From an uncultured Erysipelotrichaceae bacterium (GTDB taxonomy: Bacteria; Bacillota_I; Bacilli_A; Erysipelotrichales; Erysipelotrichaceae), in the NCBI GenBank assembly GCA_942493105.1, contig OW818668.1, forward strand, positions 480,001-512,000: 32,000 nucleotides of DNA. The letters run 5' to 3'. The number at the start of each line of letters is the position of its first letter. Position 1 is the first letter of the stretch. A model generated the notes under the pieces. It saw only the letters and a list, made by a program, of their open reading frames with translations, had not been told where the DNA came from and searched no databases. Position numbers and translations under genes: made by a program. This document shows, in pieces, positions 4,385 through 30,266 of the stretch.

Positions 4385-5296
4385 TTATTTTCTCTTTAAT
4401 TGTCTTAATCTGCGTTTATTTAGTAACCCTAATCTAAAGACAGGAATATGTTCTCGTCTAAGCTGTTTATAGACCCACAGCGCTTTCTTTAAGCCTAAAT
4501 GATATTGGAAGGCCTGTATCACATACACTAAGGCAGGAAGTTCTAGTTGGCCGTAACGCTGAGCTGATATTTTCTCTTTGAGATAACGATGCAGATTTAA
4601 ACCGATCTCAAAGCGTTGATCAAAATTCTTTTCTACACGGCTCATCGTCAATGAACCTGGAGATCTTGTGAGACAATAGATGGACTCTGATGAAACTTCG
4701 ATCTTCTGTGCTTCTGCTCCAACTTTGGCTGAAAACATCACATCGTTAGAAACCATGGTTTCATCAAATCGTATCTGATGTTGCTTGATTAAGTCATGCT
4801 TAATTAACTTTGAAGTAGGGACATAGTAGGTAAAGCGTAAAGCATCTTCAGTTTTCTGTGATGGTTGATCCAGATACGCTTTTATCAAATCAATGAACTT
4901 GTCAGCACGATGCGCATCTTCTTGTGTGCCTATAAAGCGACTGATTGGCGTAAAATAAACCAGATCGATGTTTTTCTCTAAATATGGTTCTAAACATGTT
5001 CGATAGTCAGGCAACAAATAATCATCCGCATCACAAAATAGTAACGATTGACCGATAGCCAAATCCAATCCTTTATTTCGAGCTGAACCTGCGCCTTTTT
5101 TCCCAAAGTCATTTAAAACAAAAGTCACGTGGGCATAGGCAGGATCTTGACTTAAAGAAGTATAATTTTCTAGTTGTTTGGTGCTGTGATCATCCACCAC
5201 AATGATTTGGGTATCTTCATAAGACCCAATGGAATCTAAAAGTACTTTTAGCAATTCTGGTGAATTGTAGTGAGGAATAATGATACTGATCTTCAT
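4385..5296 (-). CDS. Family 2 glycosyltransferase (paralog A)
   Basis: 303 aa. N-terminal GT-A fold signature SIIIPHYNSPELL...VVDDHS...CDADDY (DxD). ATGA start/stop overlap with the upstream gene. Confidence 0.88.
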   Translation of the reverse strand: MKISIIIPHYNSPELLKVLLDSIGSYEDTQIIVVDDHSTKQLENYTSLSQDPAYAHVTFVLNDFGKKGAGSARNKGLDLAIGQSLLFCDADDYLLPDYRTCLEPYLEKNIDLVYFTPISRFIGTQEDAHRADKFIDLIKAYLDQPSQKTEDALRFTYYVPTSKLIKHDLIKQHQIRFDETMVSNDVMFSAKVGAEAQKIEVSSESIYCLTRSPGSLTMSRVEKNFDQRFEIGLNLHRYLKEKISAQRYGQLELPALVYVIQAFQYHLGLKKALWVYKQLRREHIPVFRLGLLNKRRLRQLKRK

Positions 5297-6240
5297 GAGT
5301 TATCCTTGGGTGCCGATTTGTGTTTAAGGCGGTAATACTTTAGATGACTTAAGAAAACGTTTGGATTAAAAATATCTTTTGGTATACGTCTCAATCCGTT
5401 TTTCTTCATGAGTTTGGATGTCGCTAAAATTTTACTTAGGGGTAAATGGTTTTTAAAAGCACTGATCAAAATAGATATTGATTCGAAACGTAAGGTGTCA
5501 AATCGTTCTTTGGGCAATCTTTCTTTTAAGAATGTGACTTTGCGAATTAAGACATCCAAGCGGATATCAAAAATGGCTTCACTAAACGTCATGGTTTGAG
5601 AGCCTTTAGAACGGGTCACCACATACAATACACGAGGATCTACAATCATCTTCTTGGCATAATAACCAACTTTGGTTGCGAATAAGACATCTTCAGAGTG
5701 TCTGATCATATCAAAACGGATTTTATTTTCTTCTAAAAGTGTTCGCTTTATCAGTTTTGGATAAGGGGTAGGATGCATGAAACGCAAGGCATCTTCATTA
5801 TCTTGAGTAGGTGAAGCAAGGAAGTTGTCGATCAAGGCACTATATCGATCACTACGATGTGCATCCGTGTTGGTGTTGAGATATACAGAGGTAAACTTGA
5901 AAATAACCAGGTCTTGTTCCTGTGATAAATAAGGTTCGATTAAATCCCATACTTTTGGTACAAAATAGTCATCTGCATCTGCACATAAAACATACTTCCC
6001 TTTCGCAAGATCTAAAGCTTGATTACGAGAAGCACCAGCACCTTTAACCTCTGAACCATTTGTGATAAACGTTACTTGAGAATATGTTTTTTTAAGCTTA
6101 TCCAATTCTTCCAGATTCTTCGTGCTGCGATCGTCACATACAATGACTTGAATCGCATCTGAAAAAGGATTACTGTCCAACAGGATTTTTAAAAGATCTG
6201 GAGTATTATAGTGAGGGACAATTATACTGAGTTTGATCAT
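5293..6240 (-). CDS. Family 2 glycosyltransferase (paralog B, tandem duplicate of 4385-5296)
   Basis: 315 aa. SIIVPHYNTPDLL...VCDDRS...ADADDY. Shares many identical blocks with the downstream paralog: KGAGxxRNxxLDLAxG, EPYL, DAHRxD, EDALRF, KLIK, IRFD, TRSxGSxTM. Confidence 0.88.
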   Translation of the reverse strand: MIKLSIIVPHYNTPDLLKILLDSNPFSDAIQVIVCDDRSTKNLEELDKLKKTYSQVTFITNGSEVKGAGASRNQALDLAKGKYVLCADADDYFVPKVWDLIEPYLSQEQDLVIFKFTSVYLNTNTDAHRSDRYSALIDNFLASPTQDNEDALRFMHPTPYPKLIKRTLLEENKIRFDMIRHSEDVLFATKVGYYAKKMIVDPRVLYVVTRSKGSQTMTFSEAIFDIRLDVLIRKVTFLKERLPKERFDTLRFESISILISAFKNHLPLSKILATSKLMKKNGLRRIPKDIFNPNVFLSHLKYYRLKHKSAPKDNS

Positions 6241-6989
6241 AGTTTAACTCCGTATTTTTTTAGTGCATAAAAGGCATATTGAATAAAATAGAAACAGCTT
6301 TGAAAGAAACCTAAGCCTAGTGCTTTTCTATAATTGAACCATTGTCTTTTAGCAGCTTTTAATTTATTGCCTGAAAGTGATCCAGCATTGCCTTCAGTAT
6401 ATGTCGCCAAGATTTCATTGAGACCCTGTGCTTTATGACCACGTTTCATCAACATCAACCAAGTCAAATGATCTTGGCCTTTTCGATAATCCGGCATCAC
6501 AAAATCTCCGGTCATTCTACGATCAACGATGACTGTCAAACATCCAATCTTATTATCGACAATCAATTGTTTATAGTCTAAAACTGGATCCGCCTTTATA
6601 ATGCGTCCTTTATTGGTTCGATAAGCAGTAAATGTAAAGGCATAGGCATGGTCCTTCATAAAACTGACTTGTTTCTCAAGTTTGGTGGAATCCCAGACAT
6701 CATCCGCATCCAGAAATGCAATATATTGACCACGAGCTCGATCGATCGCCAAATTACGAGCTTTGGCTGCCCCGACATTTTGTGTCAGATCGATCCATTG
6801 GATCCGTTTATCTTTACTCAGATAGGTTTTTGCGATCGTGGCACTTTGATCACTTGATGCATCGTTGACCATGATCAATTCCCAATTCGTATAGGTTTGA
6901 TTAAGAATACTGTCTAGGGTTGTTTTTAAGGTCGTTTCTGCATTGTATACAGGGGTAATGATCGACACTAAGTCCTTGATTGGGTTCAT
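6237..6989 (-). CDS. Family 2 glycosyltransferase
   Basis: VSIITPVYNAETTL...NQTYTNWELIMVNDASSD...FLDADDVW. The ORF-track N-terminal extension (to 7067) overlaps the upstream gene. The ATG at 6989 forms an ATGA overlap with the upstream stop, so it was chosen as the start. Confidence 0.88.
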   Translation of the reverse strand: MNPIKDLVSIITPVYNAETTLKTTLDSILNQTYTNWELIMVNDASSDQSATIAKTYLSKDKRIQWIDLTQNVGAAKARNLAIDRARGQYIAFLDADDVWDSTKLEKQVSFMKDHAYAFTFTAYRTNKGRIIKADPVLDYKQLIVDNKIGCLTVIVDRRMTGDFVMPDYRKGQDHLTWLMLMKRGHKAQGLNEILATYTEGNAGSLSGNKLKAAKRQWFNYRKALGLGFFQSCFYFIQYAFYALKKYGVKL

Positions 6990-7573
6990 TGTCGCTTCCC
7001 TTCTTGGATGCCTTCTGAACGAAGTACTTTGAATATGGTGAGAAAGAAGATTTTGGTGTCTAACCAAAAGTTCATATCCTTAACATACTGACCATCTAAT
7101 TGTGCTTTAAGATCGATGGGCAATTCATCTCGGCCATTGATTTGAGCCCAACCTGTTAATCCTGGAAGAATATGATTGGCACCGACTTTTTCGCGTTCTG
7201 CGATCAAATCATCTTGATTCCATAAAGCTGGTCTGGGTCCTACGATACTCATGTCTCCACGTAAGATGTTGATGAGTTGAGGCAATTCATCCAAACTTGA
7301 TTTGCGTAAAAAAGCACCTGAGCGTGTGATGAATTTTTCCGGATGATCGAGTAAATGTGTTGGCATATCTTTAGGGGTAGTCGAAAGCATGGTCCTGAAT
7401 TTATAGATGTTGAAAAGACGTTTGTCTTTTCCGATCCTTCTTTGTGTAAAAAGAATTTTTCCTTTAGATTCACACTTGATGATGATGGCAATCAACAGTA
7501 AAATCGGACTCAGAACAAGCAGTCCGATCAAAGACAAAATAAAGTCTATGCATCGCTTAATGGGTTTATACAT
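6986..7573 (-). CDS. Small monotopic phosphoglycosyl transferase (bacterial sugar transferase, PglC/EpsL/WbaP C-terminal type), initiating enzyme
   Basis: MYKPIKRCIDFILSLIGLLVLSPILLLIAIIIK...LFTQRRIGKDKRLFNIYKFRTM...LDELPQLINILRGDMSIVGPRP is the PF02397 pattern. Start set at the ATG at 7573, an 8-nt overlap with capD. The track start at 7606 would overlap by 41 nt. Confidence 0.88.
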   Translation of the reverse strand: MYKPIKRCIDFILSLIGLLVLSPILLLIAIIIKCESKGKILFTQRRIGKDKRLFNIYKFRTMLSTTPKDMPTHLLDHPEKFITRSGAFLRKSSLDELPQLINILRGDMSIVGPRPALWNQDDLIAEREKVGANHILPGLTGWAQINGRDELPIDLKAQLDGQYVKDMNFWLDTKIFFLTIFKVLRSEGIQEGKRQ

Positions 7574-9464
7574 TTTTAGTTCGGTTGGGTTGATAAGTAG
7601 GGACACATTTGATCAAAGCTTGGATGATGGATTCATCATCAAGATCAACTACAGATTCCAAATGTTTAAGATCTTCTTCAATGGTTTTTGGATCGACCTT
7701 TATTGGAAGTGTGATAAAAATCAATTGATTGGGGGTAGAACTGACTTCTTCTTTGCTTAAGTGAAGCTCTTCATACAGTTTCTCGCCTTGTCTTAAGCCA
7801 ACTTCTTTGATGTCGATATCCACATATGGTTCATAACCAGCCAATCTGATCAAATTTTTCGCAAGATCTAAGATCTTAACCGGTTTACCCATATCTAAGA
7901 CGAAGATTTCTCCGCCTTTGGCGTAAACAGCTGCTTGAAGAACTAAAGAAACCGCTTCAGGAATGGTCATGAAGTAACGGATGATGTCTTTGTGGGTCAA
8001 GGTCAATGGTCCACCTGCTTCGATTTGGCGCTTAAACAAAGGTATGATCGATCCATTAGAACCCAATACATTCCCAAAACGTACAGCCATGAATTTTGTT
8101 TCACAAGAATTGGGATCGATCGATTGAATGATTTGTTCAATGAATCGTTTAGTGGCTCCCATGACATTGGTAGGATTAACTGCTTTATCGGTAGATATGG
8201 TCACAAAACGCTGGACCTTATATTTCTTGGCCACTTCAATCAGATTGACTGAACCAAAGATGTTGTTTTTTACAGCTTCTGAAGGCATATCTTCCATCGT
8301 AGGGACATGTTTATGAGCTGCCGCATGGAAAACCAAGGAGGGCTGATACTTTGCGAATAAGTGCTCTAATTCACTGCGTTCACGCATGTTTACGATCAAA
8401 GGAATCAGTTTGGTTTTATGATCTGGATTCTTTTTCATTAAGAAATCTTGGTGTTGATCATAGATCCCGTTTTCATTGATGTCGATCAAGATCAATATCT
8501 TAGGTTCATAGGCATAGACTTGACGAGCAAGTTCACTGCCGATCGATCCTGCAGCTCCCGTGATCAAAACCACTTGATCATGGATAAATTCATTCAAAGC
8601 TGAATTATCTAAAGTAATCGCATTTCTGCCCAACAGGTCTTCAATATTCAAGTCATGCAGATTGTTTTTGATTCCGCTTGAACTCATCATATCTTGGGTA
8701 GACGATAAGACCTTTACTTTACAGCCTGTGTTATAACATTGCTGAATGATGGCTTTTTGAACTTGTAAAGAGACGCTGGGCATGGCCACATAGATTTGTT
8801 GGATATCGAGTTTTTTGACCAACTCTTCAAGCTTATCTATGGTTCCCATGACTTTGACACCACCGATGCTTTTACCAGTTTTTGTTGGATCATCATCGAT
8901 GAAGCCTAATATTTTGCTCTTATAGATATGATTTGTACTGACTTCTTTGAACAGTAAAGATCCGGCTGCACCAGCTCCAATGATGATCGTATTCAAATCA
9001 TCTGCACTGCCGTTTTTTGATTTGACCGTGACCAGTTGTGTCATTCGTTTATAGAAACGGATGAATTCCAGAAACATGATCAAAAGTAATGCTTGGATCG
9101 GATAGATCCCAAAACGTAAACGAGGAATCAAACCTGTATATGAAATCAAAAAGTAGATGATGGCTCCTAATATGGCAGCGATGATGACCCGGGTAGCTTC
9201 ATAAACAGAAGCTAGGCCTTGGATGGTTTTATCTAACTTAAACACTTTAAACACAATGAGATAGACCAATATAATGATCCAGCTTTGTTGAACCAAAAGC
9301 TGTAGGTAACGTTCTGCGGTAAATCCTAAGAAATCCTTTTGATAAAGCGAAAAATCAAAACGAACCAGAATTGAAAAGAAATAGGCGACAAGCACAGAGA
9401 CAAGATCTGCGATGAGCCCGCTGTTTCTTTTGAGTTGATTGACAAGATCCTTCATTGATTTCAT
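7566..9464 (-). CDS. capD: Polysaccharide biosynthesis protein CapD/PglF/EpsC type (membrane-anchored NDP-sugar 4,6-dehydratase/epimerase)
   Basis: 632 aa. Four N-terminal TM helices, two Rossmann motifs (IIIGAGAAGS and VLITGAAGSIGSEL), and SDR catalytic region FVTISTDKAVNPTNVMGATKR. Confidence 0.9.
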   Translation of the reverse strand: MKSMKDLVNQLKRNSGLIADLVSVLVAYFFSILVRFDFSLYQKDFLGFTAERYLQLLVQQSWIIILVYLIVFKVFKLDKTIQGLASVYEATRVIIAAILGAIIYFLISYTGLIPRLRFGIYPIQALLLIMFLEFIRFYKRMTQLVTVKSKNGSADDLNTIIIGAGAAGSLLFKEVSTNHIYKSKILGFIDDDPTKTGKSIGGVKVMGTIDKLEELVKKLDIQQIYVAMPSVSLQVQKAIIQQCYNTGCKVKVLSSTQDMMSSSGIKNNLHDLNIEDLLGRNAITLDNSALNEFIHDQVVLITGAAGSIGSELARQVYAYEPKILILIDINENGIYDQHQDFLMKKNPDHKTKLIPLIVNMRERSELEHLFAKYQPSLVFHAAAHKHVPTMEDMPSEAVKNNIFGSVNLIEVAKKYKVQRFVTISTDKAVNPTNVMGATKRFIEQIIQSIDPNSCETKFMAVRFGNVLGSNGSIIPLFKRQIEAGGPLTLTHKDIIRYFMTIPEAVSLVLQAAVYAKGGEIFVLDMGKPVKILDLAKNLIRLAGYEPYVDIDIKEVGLRQGEKLYEELHLSKEEVSSTPNQLIFITLPIKVDPKTIEEDLKHLESVVDLDDESIIQALIKCVPTYQPNRTKNV

Positions 9465-18003: not shown

Positions 18004-18489
18004 TCAGTCAAATTTTGACGCGAGATCTTTCCATTCAATCAATGGATTGCTTTGAGTTTGTTTAAAAAATACACGTACACCACTATTAACTAATTCTTTT
18101 ATTGCTGCAACCTCTTCAGGAAGTAAATGTGCCCATCCTGTTGCAGGCGTTGCTCCCTTTTTACTACTCATTGGACCGATGTTAAAGTTATTTGGAAGAC
18201 CATCAATCACTTTTCTCAATTCAACATAAACTTGTGGTGTCTTCATCAATATAAGTGTATTTTCATTGTTGATCATTGCTTCTTTTATAGGATCAATAGC
18301 TTGTTCAAGTGTATAGCATGATGCTTTCATATTGGAAGGTACAGCTGTTTCGAATACAACACGTAGAATAGCATTTGATGCTGTAAAATTATCCACAACA
18401 ATGATCCGTTTGATATCATATTCTTTTGTTACTGAAATCATACATTGACCATGAATCAGTCGATCATCACATCTCGCTAAACTAATCAT
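18004..18489 (-). CDS. PTS mannose family EIIB component
   Basis: MISLARCDDRLIHGQ carries the phospho-histidine motif (DDRLIHGQ). The ATG at 18489 is preceded by AAGGAG. The track extension to 18567 overlaps EIIA. Confidence 0.9.
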   Translation of the reverse strand: MISLARCDDRLIHGQCMISVTKEYDIKRIIVVDNFTASNAILRVVFETAVPSNMKASCYTLEQAIDPIKEAMINNENTLILMKTPQVYVELRKVIDGLPNNFNIGPMSSKKGATPATGWAHLLPEEVAAIKELVNSGVRVFFKQTQSNPLIEWKDLASKFD

Positions 18490-18490
18490 T

Positions 18491-18916
18491 TTATTCTCCT
18501 TTTTTGAACATCTCACTGATGTCAGTAATCTTAAGGCTGTCTCTAGCACTCTCAAGAGATGATTCAATTAACGCCTTATAGTCGGTGGCAAATTCTCTCT
18601 GTGTAACCAATTCTAACAACAAAGGCAAATTCACACCAGAAACCAATAAACAGTTTGTGTTTGCTAAAGCAACTGCACTTGTGTTAAATGGAGTTGCTCC
18701 AAATAAATCTACTAAGCAAACAACTTCATCTCCTTGCTCAAGATACTGGTAAACCGAAGTTTTTATTTTTTCACTAAATTCAAGAAAATCGTCACCTTCT
18801 TGAAATCCAAATACCTCAAAACCCTTTTGTATACCACAAATCATTTCAGTTGCCTCCTTCAAACCTTGAGCAAAATTTGAGTGAGTGCAAACAATTATAT
18901 CTAAGACAGCTAACAC
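18491..18916 (-). CDS. PTS mannose family EIIA component
   Basis: IIVCTHSNFAQGLKEATEMICG carries the active-site His, and the rest follows the EIIA-Man fold pattern (LVDLFGATPFN). The only upstream in-frame start is the GTG at 18916, which directly abuts GGGAGG, so the exact start is uncertain. Confidence 0.85.
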   Translation of the reverse strand: MLAVLDIIVCTHSNFAQGLKEATEMICGIQKGFEVFGFQEGDDFLEFSEKIKTSVYQYLEQGDEVVCLVDLFGATPFNTSAVALANTNCLLVSGVNLPLLLELVTQREFATDYKALIESSLESARDSLKITDISEMFKKGE

Positions 18917-19177: not shown

Positions 19178-20098
19178 CTATTTAATGCTTTGGATATACA
19201 AGAAAGCCATTTGAGCTGCGACTGCACCATCTGAGACCGCAGTAACGATTTGTCTTAAAGGTTTGACACAGACATCGCCTGCACCATAGACTCCAGGTAC
19301 TTTCGTAGCCATCTTTTCATTGACGATCATATAACCTAAGTTATCCAAGACATCCAGATGCGCAACCGAAGATGTGCTGGCTGTCGCACCGATATAAGGG
19401 AAGATACCATCTGTTGGATAATCAAATTCTTCTTTGGTGATGAGATCTTTTAATCGAATCGCAGTTACGTGATCTTCACCGATGACAGCTACTGGTACTG
19501 TATGACGAATGACGTGGATTTTTGGATGATTTAAGGCATGGTCTTGGGCAACTTTATCAGCTCTGAAGACATCTCTGCGTATGATGATGGTGACCTTTGT
19601 GGCAAACTGAGTCAAATAAACAGCTTCTTCTAATGCCGCATTACCGCCACCGATGACCACAACTTCTTTTTGTCTATAGAAAGCACCGTCACATACCGCA
19701 CAGAAACTGACACCGTGACCTGTTAAACGATCTTCATTAGGGACTTCCATCTTATTCTCAATGGTTCCTGTGGCTAAGATCACAGCTTTGGCTTTAAAGG
19801 TTCGATCATCTTCGGTTTCTAAGGTTTTGATGATCCCATCATTTATTTTTTTGATCCCAACGAATTCTGTTTCAATCTCTAAGTTGGTGGTATGTTCATA
19901 CATCTTCAAAGCCAAATCAACACCGGATACACGAGATTCTCCTGGCCAGTTGTCGATCTCAAATGTCTTGACTAACTTTCCGCCTGGGGCAGAATTTTCA
20001 AACATGATGATGTCTAAACCGGCTCGTTTGGCGTAAATCCCTGCGGTCATGCCTGCAGGACCAGCACCGATGATGGCTAAATCGTAGATCTTGTCCAT
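19178..20098 (-). CDS. trxB: Thioredoxin-disulfide reductase
   Basis: 306 aa. FAD motif IIGAGPAGMTAG, redox-active CAVCDG, NADPH motif VIGGGNAALEEA with RRDVFRA, and C-terminal GAGDV. Confidence 0.93.
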   Translation of the reverse strand: MDKIYDLAIIGAGPAGMTAGIYAKRAGLDIIMFENSAPGGKLVKTFEIDNWPGESRVSGVDLALKMYEHTTNLEIETEFVGIKKINDGIIKTLETEDDRTFKAKAVILATGTIENKMEVPNEDRLTGHGVSFCAVCDGAFYRQKEVVVIGGGNAALEEAVYLTQFATKVTIIIRRDVFRADKVAQDHALNHPKIHVIRHTVPVAVIGEDHVTAIRLKDLITKEEFDYPTDGIFPYIGATASTSSVAHLDVLDNLGYMIVNEKMATKVPGVYGAGDVCVKPLRQIVTAVSDGAVAAQMAFLYIQSIK

Positions 20099-21537
20099 GA
20101 GATGTCCTTTTCTAGGATGGGCAATAATTCCATTAAATCGTGGATCGCGATATTAGGTTTGGCATTTAAGATCGCATCTTTACGTTCAGGATGCGTAATC
20201 AAAGCCACACTATACATACCAGCTTTAGCGGCAGCCAACATATCGGTGTCGGTATCTCCGACATAGATCACATCGTCGTGATATTCTTTTAGATTCTTAC
20301 ACGCTAAGAGTAAGCCTTCTGGATCAGGTTTGAATTTTTTTACTTCATCATAACCCACGATGGTTGAGAAGTAATGATCCATTTGAGTCAATCTCAGTCC
20401 TAATTCAACCACATCTTTCTTCTTGGAAGATACGATACCCATCGTATAGCCTTTGGCTTTAAGCGCTTCTATGAGTTCTTTGGCGTTAGGCATCGGTCTG
20501 ATGTATTCAGGATGAAGTTTGATGTTGAGCTCACGATAGTCATTAAAGGCGCTCTTGGCTTCATCTTCAGGTAAATACTTCGCTAAGGATTCATGAAGAG
20601 TAGGACCTAAGAAAGCAATTTCTTGATCACGGGTCAATTTTAATTCTGGTCTGTATTTCTTAAATATCTGTTTGAAGGTTTCGATGATGACAGGTTCGGT
20701 ATCGAGTAAGGTCCCATCCAAATCAAACAGGATGATAGGTTTTTTCTTCTTGGTGAGTTTTCTAAAGACTCCTGCCCAACCCAATAATCCAATGAATACA
20801 AAGAGGATCGATAAGACTTGGGCTGTACGAATGAGGGTTCCCCAGACATACAAACTGTCACTTCTTAAGCCTTCCACAAAGAAACGGGTAATTCCATACC
20901 ATACCAAATAACCATAGAACTGATCTCCACGTTTAACCTTGATGAGGTATTTTAAACCATAGGTAATGGCGAAGAAGCCAAGCACATTGAGGACTGATTC
21001 ATATAAGAAAGTCGGTTCTCTATAGGCTCCTTCAATATACATCATGTCTTTGATGAAGGCAGGAAAATAAGTATAGAAAGATTCTGGTACGATACGACCA
21101 AAAGCTTCTTGGTTAAAGAAATTGCCCCATCTACCCATGGCTTGAGCTAAAAGTATGGCCGGTACGATCGCATCAGCAGCCCGTAAGAAGTTGATCTTGC
21201 GATATTTTACATACACATAACCAAAGATGACCCCCAGCATCAATCCACCTTGGATGGCCATTCCTCCATTCCAAGTCATGAAGATCGAAATCGGATCAGC
21301 TAAGTAAGAATCTAGGTTATAAAACAGGACATACCATAAACGTGCTCCGATGATGCCTGAAACCAGAGCACCAAAGAAGATATCTTCAGCATAAGATTTA
21401 GGATAGCCCATCTTTGATAGTTTATGTTCAGAAATAAAATAGGTAATGAATGCGCCAATTAAGATACATACCGCATACATCTTAATGGATAAACCTCCGA
21501 TTTGGACGAATGTCGATATGTCTGGAAAGAATGTCAT
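20077..21537 (-). CDS. lgt: Fusion protein: prolipoprotein diacylglyceryl transferase Lgt (N-terminal) + HAD-superfamily phosphatase, PpaX/Gph-like (C-terminal)
   Basis: 486 aa. Residues 1 to about 262 form a polytopic Lgt with the GRWGNFFNQEAFG signature. Residues about 266-486 carry HAD motifs I ILFDLDGTLLDT, II VSSKKK and III/IV K...YVGDTDTDMLAA. The start forms an ATGA overlap with the hprK stop. Confidence 0.9.
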   Translation of the reverse strand: MTFFPDISTFVQIGGLSIKMYAVCILIGAFITYFISEHKLSKMGYPKSYAEDIFFGALVSGIIGARLWYVLFYNLDSYLADPISIFMTWNGGMAIQGGLMLGVIFGYVYVKYRKINFLRAADAIVPAILLAQAMGRWGNFFNQEAFGRIVPESFYTYFPAFIKDMMYIEGAYREPTFLYESVLNVLGFFAITYGLKYLIKVKRGDQFYGYLVWYGITRFFVEGLRSDSLYVWGTLIRTAQVLSILFVFIGLLGWAGVFRKLTKKKKPIILFDLDGTLLDTEPVIIETFKQIFKKYRPELKLTRDQEIAFLGPTLHESLAKYLPEDEAKSAFNDYRELNIKLHPEYIRPMPNAKELIEALKAKGYTMGIVSSKKKDVVELGLRLTQMDHYFSTIVGYDEVKKFKPDPEGLLLACKNLKEYHDDVIYVGDTDTDMLAAAKAGMYSVALITHPERKDAILNAKPNIAIHDLMELLPILEKDISWTRSTI

Positions 21538-22484
21538 TTTGCCTCCTTGTTTTGCTTATTGATGAAGTCATAGACACGTTGTTCAAATTCTTTAGAACTG
21601 TTGATGCCTTTTTGTTTAAGATTGAAATTGGTGACTGCAGATTCTACCAAGACGGCGATGTTTCGACCTTCTTTGACAGGAATCGTTTGCATAGGGATCT
21701 TGACTCCTAAGACTTCATAAAACTGGTCCTCGTCTTCAATACCTACGCGTGTGTATTGTTTTTCTTCGTTCCATTTTTCTAGGGCGATCACAAAATCGAT
21801 ATCTGATTGAGCTAAAGTTGCGGAAGCACCAAACATCATATTGACGTCAATGATTCCAATGCCTCTTATTTCAAGCATGCCGGCTAAGAGTTCTGTTGAT
21901 TTACCAAACACTGCATTATGATATTTATAGACATCAACGCGATCATCAGCGACTAAGATATGACCTTTTTTAATGAGTTCTAGAGCAGTTTCTGATTTAC
22001 CCATTCCAGATTCACCGGTGATGAGAATGCCTTTCCCATAGACTGAAATCAAGACACCATGGACATTGGTATTAGGCGCCAGTCTTTCACTTAAGAAAGA
22101 TATGACGTCAACCATCAATTGATACGTTGGTAACTGTGATCTAAAGATGGCGAAGTTCTTATAGTTTCCAAGTTCAATCAAAACTTCAGGGATTTCCACA
22201 TCTTTGGAGAAAATCATACAGGGCGTATATTCATCGGTTAGTTTTTCGAAACGATCTTTAAGAAGTTCAGGAGACAAGGTTTTCATAAAGGAAGATTCCT
22301 TGTTGCCCATGATGATGATCCGTCGTGGTTCACTGTGGATAAAGTATCCGCTGAGTTCTAAACCAGGACGATTGATGTCGGGGATGATGACCCAGCGTTC
22401 AAGGGCTTTTTCTCCGCCAGAAACTTGTTCAAACTTAAAGAAATCTTGAAGATCTTTGATTAAGGCTTTGCCGAATTCTTCCAT
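21534..22484 (-). CDS. hprK: HPr kinase/phosphorylase
   Basis: 316 aa. Walker A GESGMGKSETALELIKKGH, then LVADDRV and LEIRGIGIIDV signature blocks. Confidence 0.95.
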   Translation of the reverse strand: MEEFGKALIKDLQDFFKFEQVSGGEKALERWVIIPDINRPGLELSGYFIHSEPRRIIIMGNKESSFMKTLSPELLKDRFEKLTDEYTPCMIFSKDVEIPEVLIELGNYKNFAIFRSQLPTYQLMVDVISFLSERLAPNTNVHGVLISVYGKGILITGESGMGKSETALELIKKGHILVADDRVDVYKYHNAVFGKSTELLAGMLEIRGIGIIDVNMMFGASATLAQSDIDFVIALEKWNEEKQYTRVGIEDEDQFYEVLGVKIPMQTIPVKEGRNIAVLVESAVTNFNLKQKGINSSKEFEQRVYDFINKQNKEAK

Positions 22485-22488
22485 AGGG

Positions 22489-25308
22489 TTACCTTAGTAC
22501 TTTCTGCAGGTATTGACCTGTCACACTTTTTGGATTTTTACTGAGGACTTCAGGTGTTCCTGTGCCGATCAGATAACCGCCTTCATCGCCGCCTTCAGGA
22601 CCTAAGTCGATGATGTTGTCGGCATTTTTGATGATGTCGAGGTTATGTTCAATGACGATGACGGTATCCCCGTTATCGACGATACGTTGTAAGACAGGCA
22701 AGAGCTTCCCAACATCGAAACTATGAAGTCCAGTAGTCGGTTCATCTAAAATGAACACTGTTTTGCCGGTTGCACGACGTTGAAGTTCACTGGCCAGTTT
22801 GACACGTTGTGCTTCACCGCCGGATAAAGTCGTGGCGGATTGGCCCAGTTTGATGTAGCCTAAGCCAACATCTTGGAGGGTCTTTAAACGATGATGAATC
22901 TTATGGATGTTGATGAAGAAAATCAAGGCTTCATCAACGGTCATCTCCAAGATATCATAAATATTCTTACCTTTATAGGTGACTTCTAAAGTTTCGTTGT
23001 TATAGCGTTTTCCTTCACACTCTTCGCAAGGCACATAGACATCTGGTAAAAAATGCATGGAGATACGTTTGACCCCATCTCCTTGGCATAGTTCACAGCG
23101 TCCACCTTTGACATTGAATGAAAAACGAGATTTATCATAGCCTCTTACTTTAGCTTCTGGACTTAAGGCGAAAAGATCTCTGATATCATCAAATACCCCA
23201 GTATAGGTCACAGGATTTGATCGTGGAGTACGTCCAATCGGATCTTGATCGATCTCGATCAGTTTATCTATTTCTTCCATGCCTTCGATTTTTTCGACAG
23301 CCCCTGGTTTTACTTTAGGACGGCCTAAAAAATGTGCCAAGGATTTACCTAAGATGTCGTTGACCAAGGTGCTTTTACCACTACCTGATACGCCAGTGAC
23401 ACAATTAAACACACCTAAAGGAAAATCAACTGAGATTTTTTTAAGGTTATTTTCTGATGCACGGGTGATACGGATTGACTTCCCATTGCCTTCACGTCGT
23501 TTTTCAGGATAAGGATTGGTCAGAATTTTTGCGAGATACTTACCGGTTATGGTGGTCGGATTAGCGATCAGTTCTTGAGGTGTTCCTGCCGCAACGACTT
23601 CTCCGCCTTCTTTACCGGCTCCTGGTCCAATATCAATGATGTAGTCTGATTCCATCATTGTTTCTTCATCATGTTCCACAACGATCAAGGTGTTCCCAAG
23701 ATCACGCATTTGTTTCAAGGTATTGATCAGTTTCATGTTATCGCGCTGATGTAGTCCGATAGAAGGCTCATCCAACACATAAAGGACACCTGTTAAGCGT
23801 GAACCGATTTGAGTCGCTAAACGTATGCGTTGGGCTTCTCCACCGGATAATGATCCTGCGATACGATCTAAGGTCAGATATTCTAGACCCACATCTTTTA
23901 AGAAATTGAGACGTTCTCTAATTTCTTTTAAAACAAGATGGGCTATTTCTGTCTGCATGGGTTTTAAAGCTAGGGAATCCATATAAATCAAAGCTTGTTT
24001 AACCGACATCCTTGTCCATTCATTGATGTTTTTAGGACCCACTTGAACACTTAATGCCATAGGATTTAAACGCTTGCCTGCGCATACAGGACAAGCACTT
24101 TCAGCCATAAAGGTCTGATACCATTCTCGAGCCATCGATGAAGTGGTTTCTAAATGACGTCTTTGAATCAAGGATTGAACCCCTTCGATGAAGTCGTTTT
24201 TACTGTATGAGTTACCAGAACGGGTTTCTATAGAATACTTGATGGGTTCGGGAGAACCGATAAGTAAGATCTGAAGTTGTTTATCTGAAAGTTGATTGAT
24301 CGGTTTATTCAGATCGATCTTATAGTGTTTGGCTAGGGTTTCAAAGACTTGCCATTCTATGTTTTCAGTATTGAGTATATTTTTATAGTATACGATCCCG
24401 CCTTGCATGACCGATTTACTGCGATCAGGAATCAAATAATCGACATCGACCATTTGGATCGATCCTAAGCCTTTGCAGTGTTCACAGGCTCCTAAAGGTG
24501 AATTGAAGCTGAATAAACGAGGTTGAAGTTCAGGGATAGAGAAACCACATTTAGGACAGGCATAATTGCTTGAGAATAGCAGTTCTTCTCCAGAACTCAC
24601 TACCACAGCTAAACCTTTGGCTAACTTTAGTGCGTTCTCAAGGGAGTCATATAAGCGAGATGTACTGTCGGCTTGTTTAACGATACGATCGACTATGACA
24701 TCGATGGTATGCTTCTTGTTTTTCTCTAAGGTGATCTCGTCTTCCAACATTTTACTTTCGCCATTGACGCGAACTCTGACATAGCCTTCTTTACGAAGTT
24801 TATCCAAAACTTCTTTATGCGATCCTTTTTCAGCACGGATGATGGGTGCTAAGATCTGCAGGCGTTCTCCATCGGGTTCTTTCATGACCCGATCGACCAT
24901 TTGACGAACGGTTTGAGCAACGATTGGTTCATGGTGGGTTGGACAATAAGGGGTTCCTACTCGAGCATATAAAAGTCTTAAGTAGTCGTAGATTTCGGTA
25001 ACGGTACCTACCGTAGAGCGAGGATTGTGTGAGGTCGTTTTTTGATCAATAGAAATACTTGGGGATAAACCTTCTATGACATCAACATCCGGTTTTTCAG
25101 TATTGCCTAAGAATTGACGGGCATAGGCGCTTAACGATTCAACGTATCGACGTTGGCCTTCAGCGTAGATCGTATCGAAGGCCAAGGAGGTTTTTCCACT
25201 GCCTGAAAGACCGGTCATGATGACAAGTTTGTTTCTAGGAATGGTCAGTGTAATGTTTTTCAGGTTGTTCTCGCGAGCACCCTGAATGTAGATAACGTCT
25301 TTTTGCAT
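22489..25308 (-). CDS. uvrA: Excinuclease ABC subunit A
   Basis: 939 aa. Two ABC ATPase modules (GLSGSGKTSLAFDT and GVSGSGKSTLVND; LSGGEAQR twice) and zinc-finger Cys clusters (CPKCG...CEHCKG, CELCQGDG...CEECEG). Confidence 0.97.
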   Translation of the reverse strand: MQKDVIYIQGARENNLKNITLTIPRNKLVIMTGLSGSGKTSLAFDTIYAEGQRRYVESLSAYARQFLGNTEKPDVDVIEGLSPSISIDQKTTSHNPRSTVGTVTEIYDYLRLLYARVGTPYCPTHHEPIVAQTVRQMVDRVMKEPDGERLQILAPIIRAEKGSHKEVLDKLRKEGYVRVRVNGESKMLEDEITLEKNKKHTIDVIVDRIVKQADSTSRLYDSLENALKLAKGLAVVVSSGEELLFSSNYACPKCGFSIPELQPRLFSFNSPLGACEHCKGLGSIQMVDVDYLIPDRSKSVMQGGIVYYKNILNTENIEWQVFETLAKHYKIDLNKPINQLSDKQLQILLIGSPEPIKYSIETRSGNSYSKNDFIEGVQSLIQRRHLETTSSMAREWYQTFMAESACPVCAGKRLNPMALSVQVGPKNINEWTRMSVKQALIYMDSLALKPMQTEIAHLVLKEIRERLNFLKDVGLEYLTLDRIAGSLSGGEAQRIRLATQIGSRLTGVLYVLDEPSIGLHQRDNMKLINTLKQMRDLGNTLIVVEHDEETMMESDYIIDIGPGAGKEGGEVVAAGTPQELIANPTTITGKYLAKILTNPYPEKRREGNGKSIRITRASENNLKKISVDFPLGVFNCVTGVSGSGKSTLVNDILGKSLAHFLGRPKVKPGAVEKIEGMEEIDKLIEIDQDPIGRTPRSNPVTYTGVFDDIRDLFALSPEAKVRGYDKSRFSFNVKGGRCELCQGDGVKRISMHFLPDVYVPCEECEGKRYNNETLEVTYKGKNIYDILEMTVDEALIFFINIHKIHHRLKTLQDVGLGYIKLGQSATTLSGGEAQRVKLASELQRRATGKTVFILDEPTTGLHSFDVGKLLPVLQRIVDNGDTVIVIEHNLDIIKNADNIIDLGPEGGDEGGYLIGTGTPEVLSKNPKSVTGQYLQKVLR

Positions 25309-26431: not shown

Positions 26432-26677
26432 TTATTCAGCGAGATATACCATCTTCAAGCGGTTCATTGTTTCTTGGATCGATGTGTTTTCTATTCCGAG
26501 TTCATTTAACTTTTCATCATGATCCATGCAATTTTCTATAAAAAATACAACGTCATCTTTAATCAGAACAGGGACATCCTTTAAAGATTTGGCGGTCAAA
26601 AGTTGAACAAGTAAGTACACATCATTTTTATGCTTTTGAATATCGCCTTCCCTAATTTTAAGCCCTAATGCCTTCAT
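26432..26677 (-). CDS. C-terminal fragment of the interrupted nucleotidyltransferase (as called in the ORF track; the frame is open back to 26719)
   Basis: 81 aa with no recognisable RBS upstream of its ATG. It is in the same frame as the 26720-27190 ORF, separated only by one TGA plus 14 sense codons (LIPLKIRAWIDLSK). Confidence 0.5.
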   Translation of the reverse strand: MKALGLKIREGDIQKHKNDVYLLVQLLTAKSLKDVPVLIKDDVVFFIENCMDHDEKLNELGIENTSIQETMNRLKMVYLAE

Positions 26678-26719
26678 TTTGGACAGGTCAATCCACGCTC
26701 TGATTTTAAGGGGGATAAG

Positions 26720-27190
26720 TCAAATCGCATCCGCAACCGGTAATCCTTCAATAATCATCGTGTTGTTTCTCAAAAAAGTATAAAGTTCGATGTTCATAAC
26801 GATCGCTGAAAGACTAATTATCTCTTCTTCGATGCTCATTCTCGTAATACTTCCTGGATGAAGATACTCAAAAGAATCATTGACCTTAGAAAGGATTTCT
26901 ATCATATAGGGATAGTCTGGATTTTGTGGTTTTGCGAATCGATAGAAACATGGTTTACCATCAGATTTTTGACTTATCTTGTATTCACCATCTCTTATGA
27001 ATTGATGAAAGGCTATCGTAAATTCATGACTTAGTGTCTCGACGATCAAGACAATGTCTAAATCTTTTGTAGGACGAAAAGGTAATCCCACTTTGTTCAT
27101 GACGACCCAACATGCACTTCCTCCAATCAATACATACTGATCTTTAAATCTCTCAAATCGCATTCTGAAGAGGTCAAGCCCCTTAATCAT
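26720..27190 (-). CDS. N-terminal fragment of a pol-beta-superfamily nucleotidyltransferase, AbiEii/AbiGii-like by motif pattern
   Basis: 156 aa. YVLIGGSACWVVMNKVGLPFRPTKDLDIVL fits the hG[GS]...DxD minimal NTase motif in the spacing seen in the AbiEii (DUF1814) family. 8-nt overlap with the upstream HTH gene suggests translational coupling. Confidence 0.6.
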   Translation of the reverse strand: MIKGLDLFRMRFERFKDQYVLIGGSACWVVMNKVGLPFRPTKDLDIVLIVETLSHEFTIAFHQFIRDGEYKISQKSDGKPCFYRFAKPQNPDYPYMIEILSKVNDSFEYLHPGSITRMSIEEEIISLSAIVMNIELYTFLRNNTMIIEGLPVADAI

Positions 27191-28181
27191 ATCTACTTAG
27201 TTCTTGATCAAGTACATTTTCTAAAACCATTTTTATTCGTTCGTTTTTATGGTTCAGCATGGTTAAAACCAATGCAAACGGACTCACAATTCCGTTTTCA
27301 CTCGGCACAGGGATTGACCATATTTCCACAATGAGTGAGTCATTCTCAAGATGAGGAATTGTGGTAAATTCATGCTTGATATTATTCCAATCTGAAACGT
27401 AAATTGCATACGATTCATTGAGTGGATCAGCCATTTCGCTTAATTCTTGTAGTGCACTTTCAGAAGTCTTAAAAAACACCAAGTTACTTAAAACAGGGTG
27501 ATTTGAGCCATCAATGTAAATGAGCCGTTTAATCGGATTTTTGAATTTTGCACAGTTGTCTTTGAAAGTAGTTCTCCAGTTCTCAGGCAGAGTCATTTTT
27601 TTACTATTATCAGACTTAATGATTATTTTTTCTCGCATCAATTCTTTATACGCACGATGTAGTGTCATTCTTGAAATTCTTAATTGATTCGCAATATCAT
27701 TCTGCTTAGAAGTAAAGCCACTCTTTATCAAAAAAAGATAAACTAAAAATGTAGAAGGAGAGAGTTTGGTAGAACTAGTCGTATAGGATGGGATATTACT
27801 GATGTAAGCTTGTCTTGATCTATTGGAGTAAATAACTCCTAAGAAAGGAGCAAACATTTGCTTGCCTGAAATGATGAATGCAATTTTGTATTCAATGAGT
27901 CTTTTGTTAATGTAAGGTGATGATTTTGATAATATAAAGATAATTTTATAATCGTTGTGCAAAGTTGTTTCTAGATTTCTATAGGTATTGAACAATTTTG
28001 AAAAAGTTACTGGTCCTATAGGAATAACAGCTAGAATGAATCCAAGATCTGTGCTAGCACTATAAAAATTAAAATTTGATGTTATGAACAATGGCATTGG
28101 TGGTACAGAATCCCATGGCTCAAAATGCATCTCTAATCCAGAGTAGTCATAGATATATTTCTGTGCATTTTGGATTTCCAT
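27183..28181 (-). CDS. HTH-containing protein: unknown N-terminal domain (~150 aa) + winged-HTH + C-terminal domain; putative AbiEi-like antitoxin/regulator
   Basis: 332 aa from the ATG at 28181 (RBS AAGGTGA, 6-nt spacer; the track start at 28184 is a GTG). Central HTH is SKQNDIANQLRISRMTLHRAYKELMREKII. The C-terminal segment (SESALQEL...VSPFALVLTML) is AbiEi-C-like by pattern only. Confidence 0.6.
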   Translation of the reverse strand: MEIQNAQKYIYDYSGLEMHFEPWDSVPPMPLFITSNFNFYSASTDLGFILAVIPIGPVTFSKLFNTYRNLETTLHNDYKIIFILSKSSPYINKRLIEYKIAFIISGKQMFAPFLGVIYSNRSRQAYISNIPSYTTSSTKLSPSTFLVYLFLIKSGFTSKQNDIANQLRISRMTLHRAYKELMREKIIIKSDNSKKMTLPENWRTTFKDNCAKFKNPIKRLIYIDGSNHPVLSNLVFFKTSESALQELSEMADPLNESYAIYVSDWNNIKHEFTTIPHLENDSLIVEIWSIPVPSENGIVSPFALVLTMLNHKNERIKMVLENVLDQELSRYD

Positions 28182-28229
28182 CACTTTTCACCTTGCTTAT
28201 CTGGTGAAAGTGTATCATATTTTATTATT

Positions 28230-28272
28230 TGTAACAACACACTATGTTACATATAATTTATACTGTTACATA
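28230..28272. promoter_or_regulatory. Operator-like repeat set in the promoter region of the HTH/NTase module
   Basis: Inverted repeat TGTAACA (28230-28236) - N8 - TGTTACA (28245-28251). TGTTACATA is also repeated directly at 28245-28253 and 28264-28272, a 19-bp period. Confidence 0.5.
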
Positions 28273-28292: not shown

Positions 28293-30266
28293 TTAAAGTT
28301 GAGATTTCAATTCAAGTAAGATGTCTCTGAGTTCAGCGGCACGTTCAAAGTCTAGGACTTTGGCCGCATCTTTCATTTCTCTCTCTAAATTTTCAATCAA
28401 ACGTAATTTTTCACCCTTGCTTGTTTTTTCGTGTTTGCCTAGATATTCTTTCGCCATGGCTTTGGTTTCTTTGCCTCGTATGACGTCGTGGATTTCTTTT
28501 TTGATGGTGGTAGGGGTGATGTTGTTGGCTGTGTTATGGGCGATCTGAATGTCACGACGACGTTGTGTTTCTCCGATTGCTTTTTCCATAGAGTCGGTTA
28601 TGCGATCCGCATACAGGATAACTTTTCCGTTTGAATTACGGGCAGCACGTCCAATCGTCTGAATCAAAGAACGATGTGATCTTAAGAATCCTTCTTTATC
28701 CGCATCTAGGATACAAACCAAAGAAACTTCAGGAAGATCTAATCCTTCACGAAGTAAGTTGATCCCAACTAAGACATTGTATTTACCTTTACGTAAATCA
28801 TGCAGGATTTCAATGCGTTCTAACGTTAAGGTTTCATGATGAAGGTAAGCCACTTTTAAATCCAATCGTTTTAGATATGAGGTCAGTTCTTCTGCCATTT
28901 TAACAGTTAAAGTGGTGATGAGAACACGTTCGTCACGATCGATTCGCGCATGAACTTCAGAGATGATGTCGTCAATTTGACCGCGTGAAGGACGAATGAT
29001 GACTTCAGGATCGACAAGACCTGTCGGTCTGATGATTTGTTGAACGACATCGCCTTGGGTCAGAGCCAACTCATAATCGCCTGGTGTAGCTGAAACGAAG
29101 ATGACTTGGTTGATGATTTCTTCAAATTCGCTGAATCTTAAAGGGCGATTATCAAGGGCTGAAGGTAATCTGAAACCATATTCAACCAAGGTCGTTTTTC
29201 GTGAACGATCACCGTTATACATGCCTCGTACTTGTGGTACAGAAACATGCGATTCATCGATGACCAATAAATAATCATCTGGGAAGTAATCAAACAAGTT
29301 AAAAGAACGTTGGCCTTCTTTACGTCCATCAATGTGTCGTGAATAATTTTCAATACCTGGACACATCCCAAATTCACGTAAAGCTTCTAGGTCATATAAA
29401 GTTCTTTGTTTAAGACGCTGTTCCTCCAAAAGCTTATTTTCGTTATGTAAAACTTCAAGTCTTTCTTTGAGTTCTTCTTCGATGCGATCACAAGCTTCCA
29501 GCATTTGTTCTCTGGAGCGTGCATATTCGTTGGCTGGAAAAATGTTGTATACAGAATAAGCATTTTGGATCTTACCTGTGACTCGATCGACTTCGGTGAT
29601 GCGTTCGATCTCATCCCCAAACATTTCGATGCGTAGATTGAATTGGTCCGTAAACCCTAATGAAATCTCGATGACGTCCCCATGGACTCTAAAAGTCCCT
29701 CGTTTTGGATCGATGTCATTACGCATGTATTGACGATCGACGAGTTTACGTAAGAGTTCTGCTCTTTTGATGTTTTCGTGAACTTTGATGGTGAAAAAGA
29801 GCTGACGGTAAAGTTCAGGATCAGATGATGCATAAATACAGGCTACAGAGGCTACGATGATGGTGTCTCGTCTTTCCAAGACTGCATTGAGGGCACTCAT
29901 TCTAAGCATGTCAAGTTCTTCATTGATCATGGATGCTTTTTCGATATACAGATCTCGTGTTGGTAAGTAAGCTTCAGGCTGATAATAATCAAAATTAGAA
30001 ACAAAATATTCTACTCTGTTTTCTGGAAAGAGTTCTTTGAATTCAGAATAAAGCTGACCGGCTAAGGTCTTATTATGGACAAAAACCAAAGTCGGACGAT
30101 TGACTCTTTCGATGACCTTAGAAATGGTAAAAGTCTTACCTGTGCCGGTAGCACCCAGTAAGACTTGAGCTCGCTTTTGCTGGTTCAACCCTTCCACCAA
30201 AGCTTCTATGGCTTTGGGTTGATCGCCTGTGGGGCTGTAAGGTGAAACCAGCTTAAATTCATTCAT
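28293..30266 (-). CDS. uvrB: Excinuclease ABC subunit B
   Basis: 657 aa. Walker [14 protein letters not shown] box (VIDESHV), helicase motif VI (QTIGRAARN) and C-terminal UVR domain ([11 protein letters not shown]). 8-nt overlap with the ctpA stop. Confidence 0.97.

Follow-up and report, generated by a model that had tools for sequence, protein, structure and literature searches.

Point mutations that inactivate the toxin genes of chromosomal toxin-antitoxin (TA) modules are a general phenomenon. Among the described systems that resemble the locus examined here, AbiEi/AbiEii of Streptococcus agalactiae and Lactococcus, a type IV TA and abortive infection system (DUF1814, COG2253-COG5340), is bicistronic with overlapping genes, and has a winged-helix protein encoded upstream, repeats in the promoter and a Pol-beta nucleotidyltransferase (NTase) downstream that carries hGG...R-x3-D-x-D, a Lys motif III and a C-terminal acidic motif (PMC3985639). 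The motifs of DUF1814 were defined by Dy et al., with motif IV as a +DxxD pentad and KLxAaxxR as the COG4849 form of motif III (PMC3985639). In AbiEii, the substitutions K173A and R180A in motif III and D192A in motif IV each abolish toxicity, and D192A also severely reduces GTP binding (PMC3985639). MenT1, assigned to COG4849 by a 2026 preprint, has a small antitoxin without an HTH as its partner. Larger winged-helix (wHTH) partners encoded upstream are described for COG4861, in predicted COG4849-COG4861 pairs such as Rv0836c-Rv0837c (MenT2-MenA2) of M. tuberculosis, and MenT2, whose partner is a COG4861 protein, had no detectable activity (PMC11375011).

The locus described here lies in a 32-kb window (the whole stretch of 32,000 nucleotides that was analysed) and likewise consists of two overlapping genes, with a winged-helix protein (the partner) encoded upstream, repeats at the promoter and, downstream, a Pol-beta NTase with hGG...R-x3-D-x-D, a Lys motif III and an acidic motif towards the C-terminus. 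It differs from AbiEi/AbiEii in several ways. The wHTH of AbiEi is N-terminal, whereas the partner has ~330 aa and a central, MarR/ArsR-like wHTH; KHKND stands in place of the +DxxD of motif IV; the score of the NTase against Pfam PF08843 is 15.3 bits, under the gathering cut-off of 22.5; and the NTase gene is broken. MenT1 (8an5_A) is the best structural match, and the K-h-x-A-aromatic segment of the NTase fits the COG4849 form of motif III, but the small antitoxin of MenT1 is unlike the partner found here. The larger upstream wHTH partner fits COG4861 as described. Matched in this way to descriptions in the literature, the NTase and its partner look like the COG4849-COG4861 class of DUF1814 modules. 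The locus also resembles inactivated chromosomal TA toxins in that one nonsense mutation has hit the toxin-like gene and the antitoxin-like gene beside it is intact. The window allele is a further instance of these, in a poorly annotated family of a known kind.

On the minus strand, 27190 to 26432 is a single 253-codon frame with the TGA at codon 157 as its sole internal stop (Table 1); the plus-strand base at 26720 is T. The first-pass annotation had described the 156-aa and 81-aa ORFs called here as one frame interrupted by one stop, which our translation of the 253 codons bears out, and the peptide it gave across the junction (A-I-stop-L-I-P-L-K-I-R-A-W-I-D-L-S-K-M) proved exact on re-translation. 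The Met172 start of the 81-aa ORF is 14 codons past the TGA, and the 25 nt upstream of this ATG (CAGAGCGTGGATTGACCTGTCCAAA) hold no GGAGG-like element at Shine-Dalgarno (SD) distance, in line with the earlier statement that the piece has no ribosome-binding site. Chance does not explain the open frame past the TGA: its 95 codons give gap-free alignments with the C-terminal regions of hundreds of homologues of ~252 aa and share 72% identity with the syntenic orthologue described below. The 81-aa ORF is an artefact of the way ORFs are called and no gene, even though it is entered as a separate protein in a public collection, as is the 156-aa piece. For annotation, the two ORFs are best joined into a single entry, marked as a pseudogene of an AbiEii/MenT-like NTase (Cys157 to stop).

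Table 1. Coordinates of the NTase gene, its partner gene and the promoter region in the window.
Feature	Position	Strand	Remarks
In-frame TGA	26720..26722	-	codon 157 of the nucleotidyltransferase gene; orthologous codon TGT (Cys)
N-terminal 156-codon piece	26720..27190	-	alpha/beta NTase core, motifs I and II
Rest of frame	26432..26719	-	codons 158-252 and TAA; C-terminal five-helix domain, motif III and KHKND
81-aa 'ORF'	26432..26677	-	starts at Met172, without SD, without motif III
Motifs I and II	27056..27124	-	L-I-G23-G24-S ... R39-P-T-K-D43-L-D45
Motif III	26684..26719	-	L-I-P-L-K162-I-R-A-W166-I-D-L
KHKND motif	26621..26635	-	K186-H-K-N-D190
Partner gene	27183..28184	-	intact; 333 aa from GTG, or 332 aa from ATG at 28181
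Operator-like repeats	28229..28271	-	ATGTAACA at 28264-28271 and 28245-28252; inverted TGTAACA at 28229-28236

Of the features by which DUF1814 is recognised, the joined frame has motifs I and II (hG[GS], DhD and an Arg four before the first Asp) and a motif III with its Lys in a hydrophobic context. No variation is seen at G23, G24, R39, D43 and D45 among 21 homologues or among 42, and the residues invariant across the family in the C-terminal part are K162, A165, L169, K186, H187 and D190. K186-H-K-N-D190 is invariant or nearly so as a whole, and lacks the second Asp of the +DxxD pentad. The downstream piece had earlier been noted to contain what look like conserved Lys/Asp motifs, and K162, K186 and D190 are indeed among the invariant positions. 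The weak AbiEii match of the window's NTase spans residues 7-72 and the PADLOC AbiEii match is sub-threshold as well (E = 0.006), while PF08843 is matched at E <= 0.1 by 26 of the 42 family members (best 9e-6); a profile of the family gave only noise against PDB sequences. Modelled with AlphaFold, the intact orthologue (pLDDT 84, pTM 0.84) has an alpha/beta core at residues 1-153 and a five-helix domain at 155-248, with helices above pLDDT 90. Foldseek searches of the PDB with this model gave MenT1 (8an5_A, E = 4.4e-5) as the best match, then 5uvd, an NTase-like protein of Paracoccidioides brasiliensis (E = 2.2e-4), and also ANT(2'')-Ia, LnuA and MenT3/TglT entries (E ~1e-2 for MenT3/TglT), with modest TM-scores of 0.35-0.51. 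Since the motifs match, PF08843 is found below threshold in those family members, and MenT1 and MenT3/TglT are recovered by structure, we assign the NTase, which is of Pol-beta type, to the AbiEii/MenT (DUF1814) superfamily of TA and abortive infection systems, in a branch that is distant and without annotation, and the earlier identification as a nucleotidyltransferase holds. The label 'toxin' would follow from this homology, and we use 'toxin-like' below.

A search with the joined NTase sequence returned 3,967 homologues. Among the best 120 listed, lengths are 249-270 aa and 98-100% of the query is covered in nearly all cases, the one exception being the 156-aa fragment from the window itself. 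The closest homologue among those listed (P0001) is an intact protein of 252 aa with 76% identity, from an Erysipelotrichaceae MAG, and a scan of genome contigs for the NTase locus gave two loci only (L002 = L003). The window and the MAG have the gene order ctpA-uvrB-partner-NTase-pfkB-uvrA-hprK-lgt in common, and five flanking proteins are 87-97% identical, so the MAG is from a close relative and P0001 is the true orthologue of the NTase. The two NTase genes align codon for codon without gaps, and the TGA stands opposite TGT (Cys). Column 157 of the protein alignment is Cys in the ten closest aligned homologues and V, Y, H, Q, R or G farther out. Metagenome contigs were scanned with a degenerate pattern (TGN, then L-I-P-L-K-x-R-A-W-x-D-L), and the 83 contigs matched have TGC in 59, TGT in 23, TGG in one and TGA in none; TGA is likewise absent at this codon from the 21 aligned homologues. 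The orthologue's TGT, together with TGY in 82 of the 83 relatives, indicates that a T-to-A transversion altered a Cys codon, and among the sequences compared the TGA is unique to the window genome. The first-pass annotation had suggested a transition from TGG and asked whether orthologues have Trp here; the ancestral codon is instead TGT, and the residue is Cys in the orthologue and the ten closest homologues. The sole TGG is in L066 (~800-837), within T-W-L-I-P-F-K-A-R-A-W-L-D-L, and shows that Trp is tolerated at this position. An exact 30-mer, looked for in metagenome contigs to recover further strains of the species, gave 0 matches. One family member elsewhere (L056, ~4900-5650) is apparently truncated at its C-terminus, with 206 codons ending in LYQLLSPPLVTRRT and a stop; short repeats follow (..AMRSE.. 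twice), so that the gene may have been disrupted by insertion of a repeat element.

We conclude that the TGA is probably a genuine and recent nonsense mutation, truncating a toxin-like NTase encoded by the downstream gene of a two-gene operon. The winged-helix regulator gene comes first in the operon and the NTase gene second; in the mechanism we propose, TGT (Cys157) would have become TGA by T-to-A on the coding strand, that is, A-to-T at plus-strand position 26720. Translation would then stop after residue 156, leaving the Pol-beta core with motifs I and II, and the product would be without the C-terminal helical domain, hence without motif III (KIRAW) and KHKND. Codon 157 falls where the first helix of this domain begins, with both motifs downstream of it. 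As the equivalents of these motifs are essential in AbiEii, by this analogy we expect the 156-aa product to have neither activity nor toxicity. The intact NTase would presumably be toxic, with the truncation abolishing its activity.

Both halves of the NTase are under purifying selection: against the orthologue, dN/dS is 0.09 in the part before the TGA (codons 1-156) and 0.14 in the part after it (codons 158-252). In both halves most changes are at third positions, no second-position change is seen against the orthologue in the 14 codons past the TGA, and every family-invariant residue is still present. Given this selection on both halves, the retained residues and an intact partner gene, the mutation is recent relative to the divergence of the window genome and the MAG. 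A lesion this recent leaves a dead gene and a leaky allele indistinguishable from sequence alone.

Several other explanations of the in-frame stop have to be weighed against a nonsense mutation. A code in which TGA is sense (table 4 or 25) is ruled out, as TGA terminates 10 other ORFs of the window at their expected length and 81 in-frame TGG codons are present; hprK, for one, ends in TGA at 316 aa, equal in length to its orthologue. TGA is thus a real stop in a standard genetic code, and the earlier remark that a Mollicutes-type recoding does not apply was correct. An error of sequencing or assembly, with TGT in the true genome and an intact gene, would fit a single-base substitution seen in a single genome. 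We nonetheless regard it as unlikely, with quite a small chance of being right. Consensus substitution errors are rare, and an independent assembler gave a contig (Logan, run SRR22388090) that is 100% identical to the window over 1,552 bp with the TGA included, although this only second source may share reads with the deposited genome and a systematic base-calling error is conceivable. There was also no second damaged gene seen among the ORFs checked in the window, with 8/8 further ORFs intact when scanned against Pfam. Two places where frameshifts were suspected, 6237-7606 and 18004-18916, turned out to hold separate intact genes, for a GT2 and a sugar transferase and for PTS IIB and IIA, respectively. 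A UGA paired with a Cys in homologues is the classical signature of a selenoprotein, and this pairing is what would favour selenocysteine (Sec) at codon 157. A SECIS-like hairpin, for which we took a stem-loop ~11-37 nt past the UGA as the criterion, was not found: shuffled sequences fold as well as the 71-nt stretch that spans the UGA and what follows it (z = +0.36), the best hairpin nearby is a 5-bp stem of -4.4 kcal/mol, and folding at least this good is seen in 23% of 60-nt windows of the neighbouring genes. Rfam and tRNA scans of the whole 32-kb window gave no matches and no tRNA-Sec. Furthermore, Cys157 is neither conserved across the family nor catalytic, and this variability and the absence of TGA from the 83 relatives speak against Sec as well as against a programmed read-through that is conserved, leaving Sec an extremely improbable reading. 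It is also very improbable that the 156-aa and 81-aa pieces are made separately and assemble into a functional split enzyme. Such an arrangement would agree with their being called as separate proteins, but no SD precedes the 81-aa ORF, and motif III (K162, R164) is located between the TGA and Met172 and so is missing from it. No split homologue was found among the best 120 listed, the 83 contigs or 53 loci with the upstream region, and the downstream frame aligns to the same family, so that the earlier view of one gene, as opposed to two separate ones, is upheld.

The remaining alternative is a leaky stop, in which near-cognate tRNA-Trp or tRNA-Cys reads through the UGA to give a little full-length, active enzyme, making the allele a fortuitous or selected hypomorph. 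The 95 codons that stay open, with their invariant residues and low dN/dS, would suit such a leak, but a recent knockout would equally show an open and conserved downstream frame. The base after the UGA here is C, which makes for weak termination; it is, however, simply the base with which a conserved Leu codon opens, and the genuine TGA stops of the window are followed by A in five, T in three and C in two of the 10 cases, a spread that is not informative. The site itself is permissive (C, V, Y, H, Q, R and G are all tolerated at 157), and with Trp there in one natural homologue (L066) a Trp-containing read-through product might be active. Against this, the marks of programmed read-through are missing: the orthologue has TGT, 0/83 relatives have TGA, and no stimulatory structure is seen downstream. 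We therefore hold a leaky stop to be doubtful, and more doubtful still the idea that a UGA-C leak inserting Trp or Cys at 157 was selected as a dose-reducer for a toxic NTase with the winged-helix partner retained. Among the three options first put forward for the split, nonsense inactivation fits best, the read-through throttle is unsupported and a sequencing error is unlikely. On this reading, the inactivation of a toxin-like gene at this locus is an ordinary one, neither a recoding nor a regulatory device.

The ATG of the NTase gene overlaps the stop codon of the partner gene by 8 nt, and an upstream ORF overlapping by 1-17 nt is present in 53/53 loci with a complete upstream region. These upstream ORFs have 326-358 aa in 51 of the loci, 387 aa in one and 445 aa in one, and a 16-member subset aligns over the full length as one family. 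The window's partner gene is intact and aligns with this family from end to end. The partner is 66% identical to its orthologue, and its central MarR/ArsR-like winged helix is at ~residues 140-198 (27591..27767). MarR_2 is matched by 10/16 members of the subset and a profile of the partner family matches AdcR/ZitR at ~4e-4; no sequence match was obtained between the partner and the solved AbiEi/Rv2827c structures. The partner is presumed to be an antitoxin or autoregulator, and as such it would neutralise the NTase. The ORF as called begins with GTG at 28184. Since the orthologue begins at the adjacent ATG (MEIQN...) with AAGGTGA upstream, the true start is probably the ATG at 28181, giving 332 aa. 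Upstream of the partner gene, ATGTAACA is present as two direct copies and one inverted copy within 43 nt and has no further exact copies in the 32 kb. All three repeats are kept in L002 (~4925-4975) with different spacers, and the inverted copy overlaps a -35-like TTGTTA with TACACT 17 nt downstream. These repeats at the operon promoter are probably the operator of the winged-helix partner.

The module is in synteny with that of the MAG but far more diverged than its flanks, with 66% identity for the partner and 76% for the NTase against 87-97% for five flanking genes. The dS of the NTase between the window and the MAG is 1.2-1.4 vs 0.64 for uvrA, uvrB and hprK (26432-28184 vs 21534-25308 and 28293-30266). 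This divergence could be due to fast evolution or to allelic replacement in place. At least 3,967 proteins make up the NTase family, hardly any of them assigned to a Pfam entry, and carriers of the family include 49 plasmid records (32 conjugative) and 3 phage-like contigs from human faeces. In the RefSeq plasmid copies listed, the NTase is a 'hypothetical protein' in nearly all and without annotation in two, and the partner is a 'helix-turn-helix domain-containing protein' in some records. The more useful by-product of this work is the NTase family itself, strictly paired with a ~330-aa winged-helix protein and similar to the COG4849-COG4861 class, which is not known to have been characterised. 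The broken allele and the intact orthologue are a natural pair for testing whether the class is toxic. Elsewhere in the window, 20077-21537 on the minus strand encodes a 486-aa fusion of Lgt (prolipoprotein diacylglyceryl transferase, residues 10-254) and a HAD-family hydrolase (268-470), and a Lgt-HAD fusion of the same 486 aa is found in the related MAG (L002).
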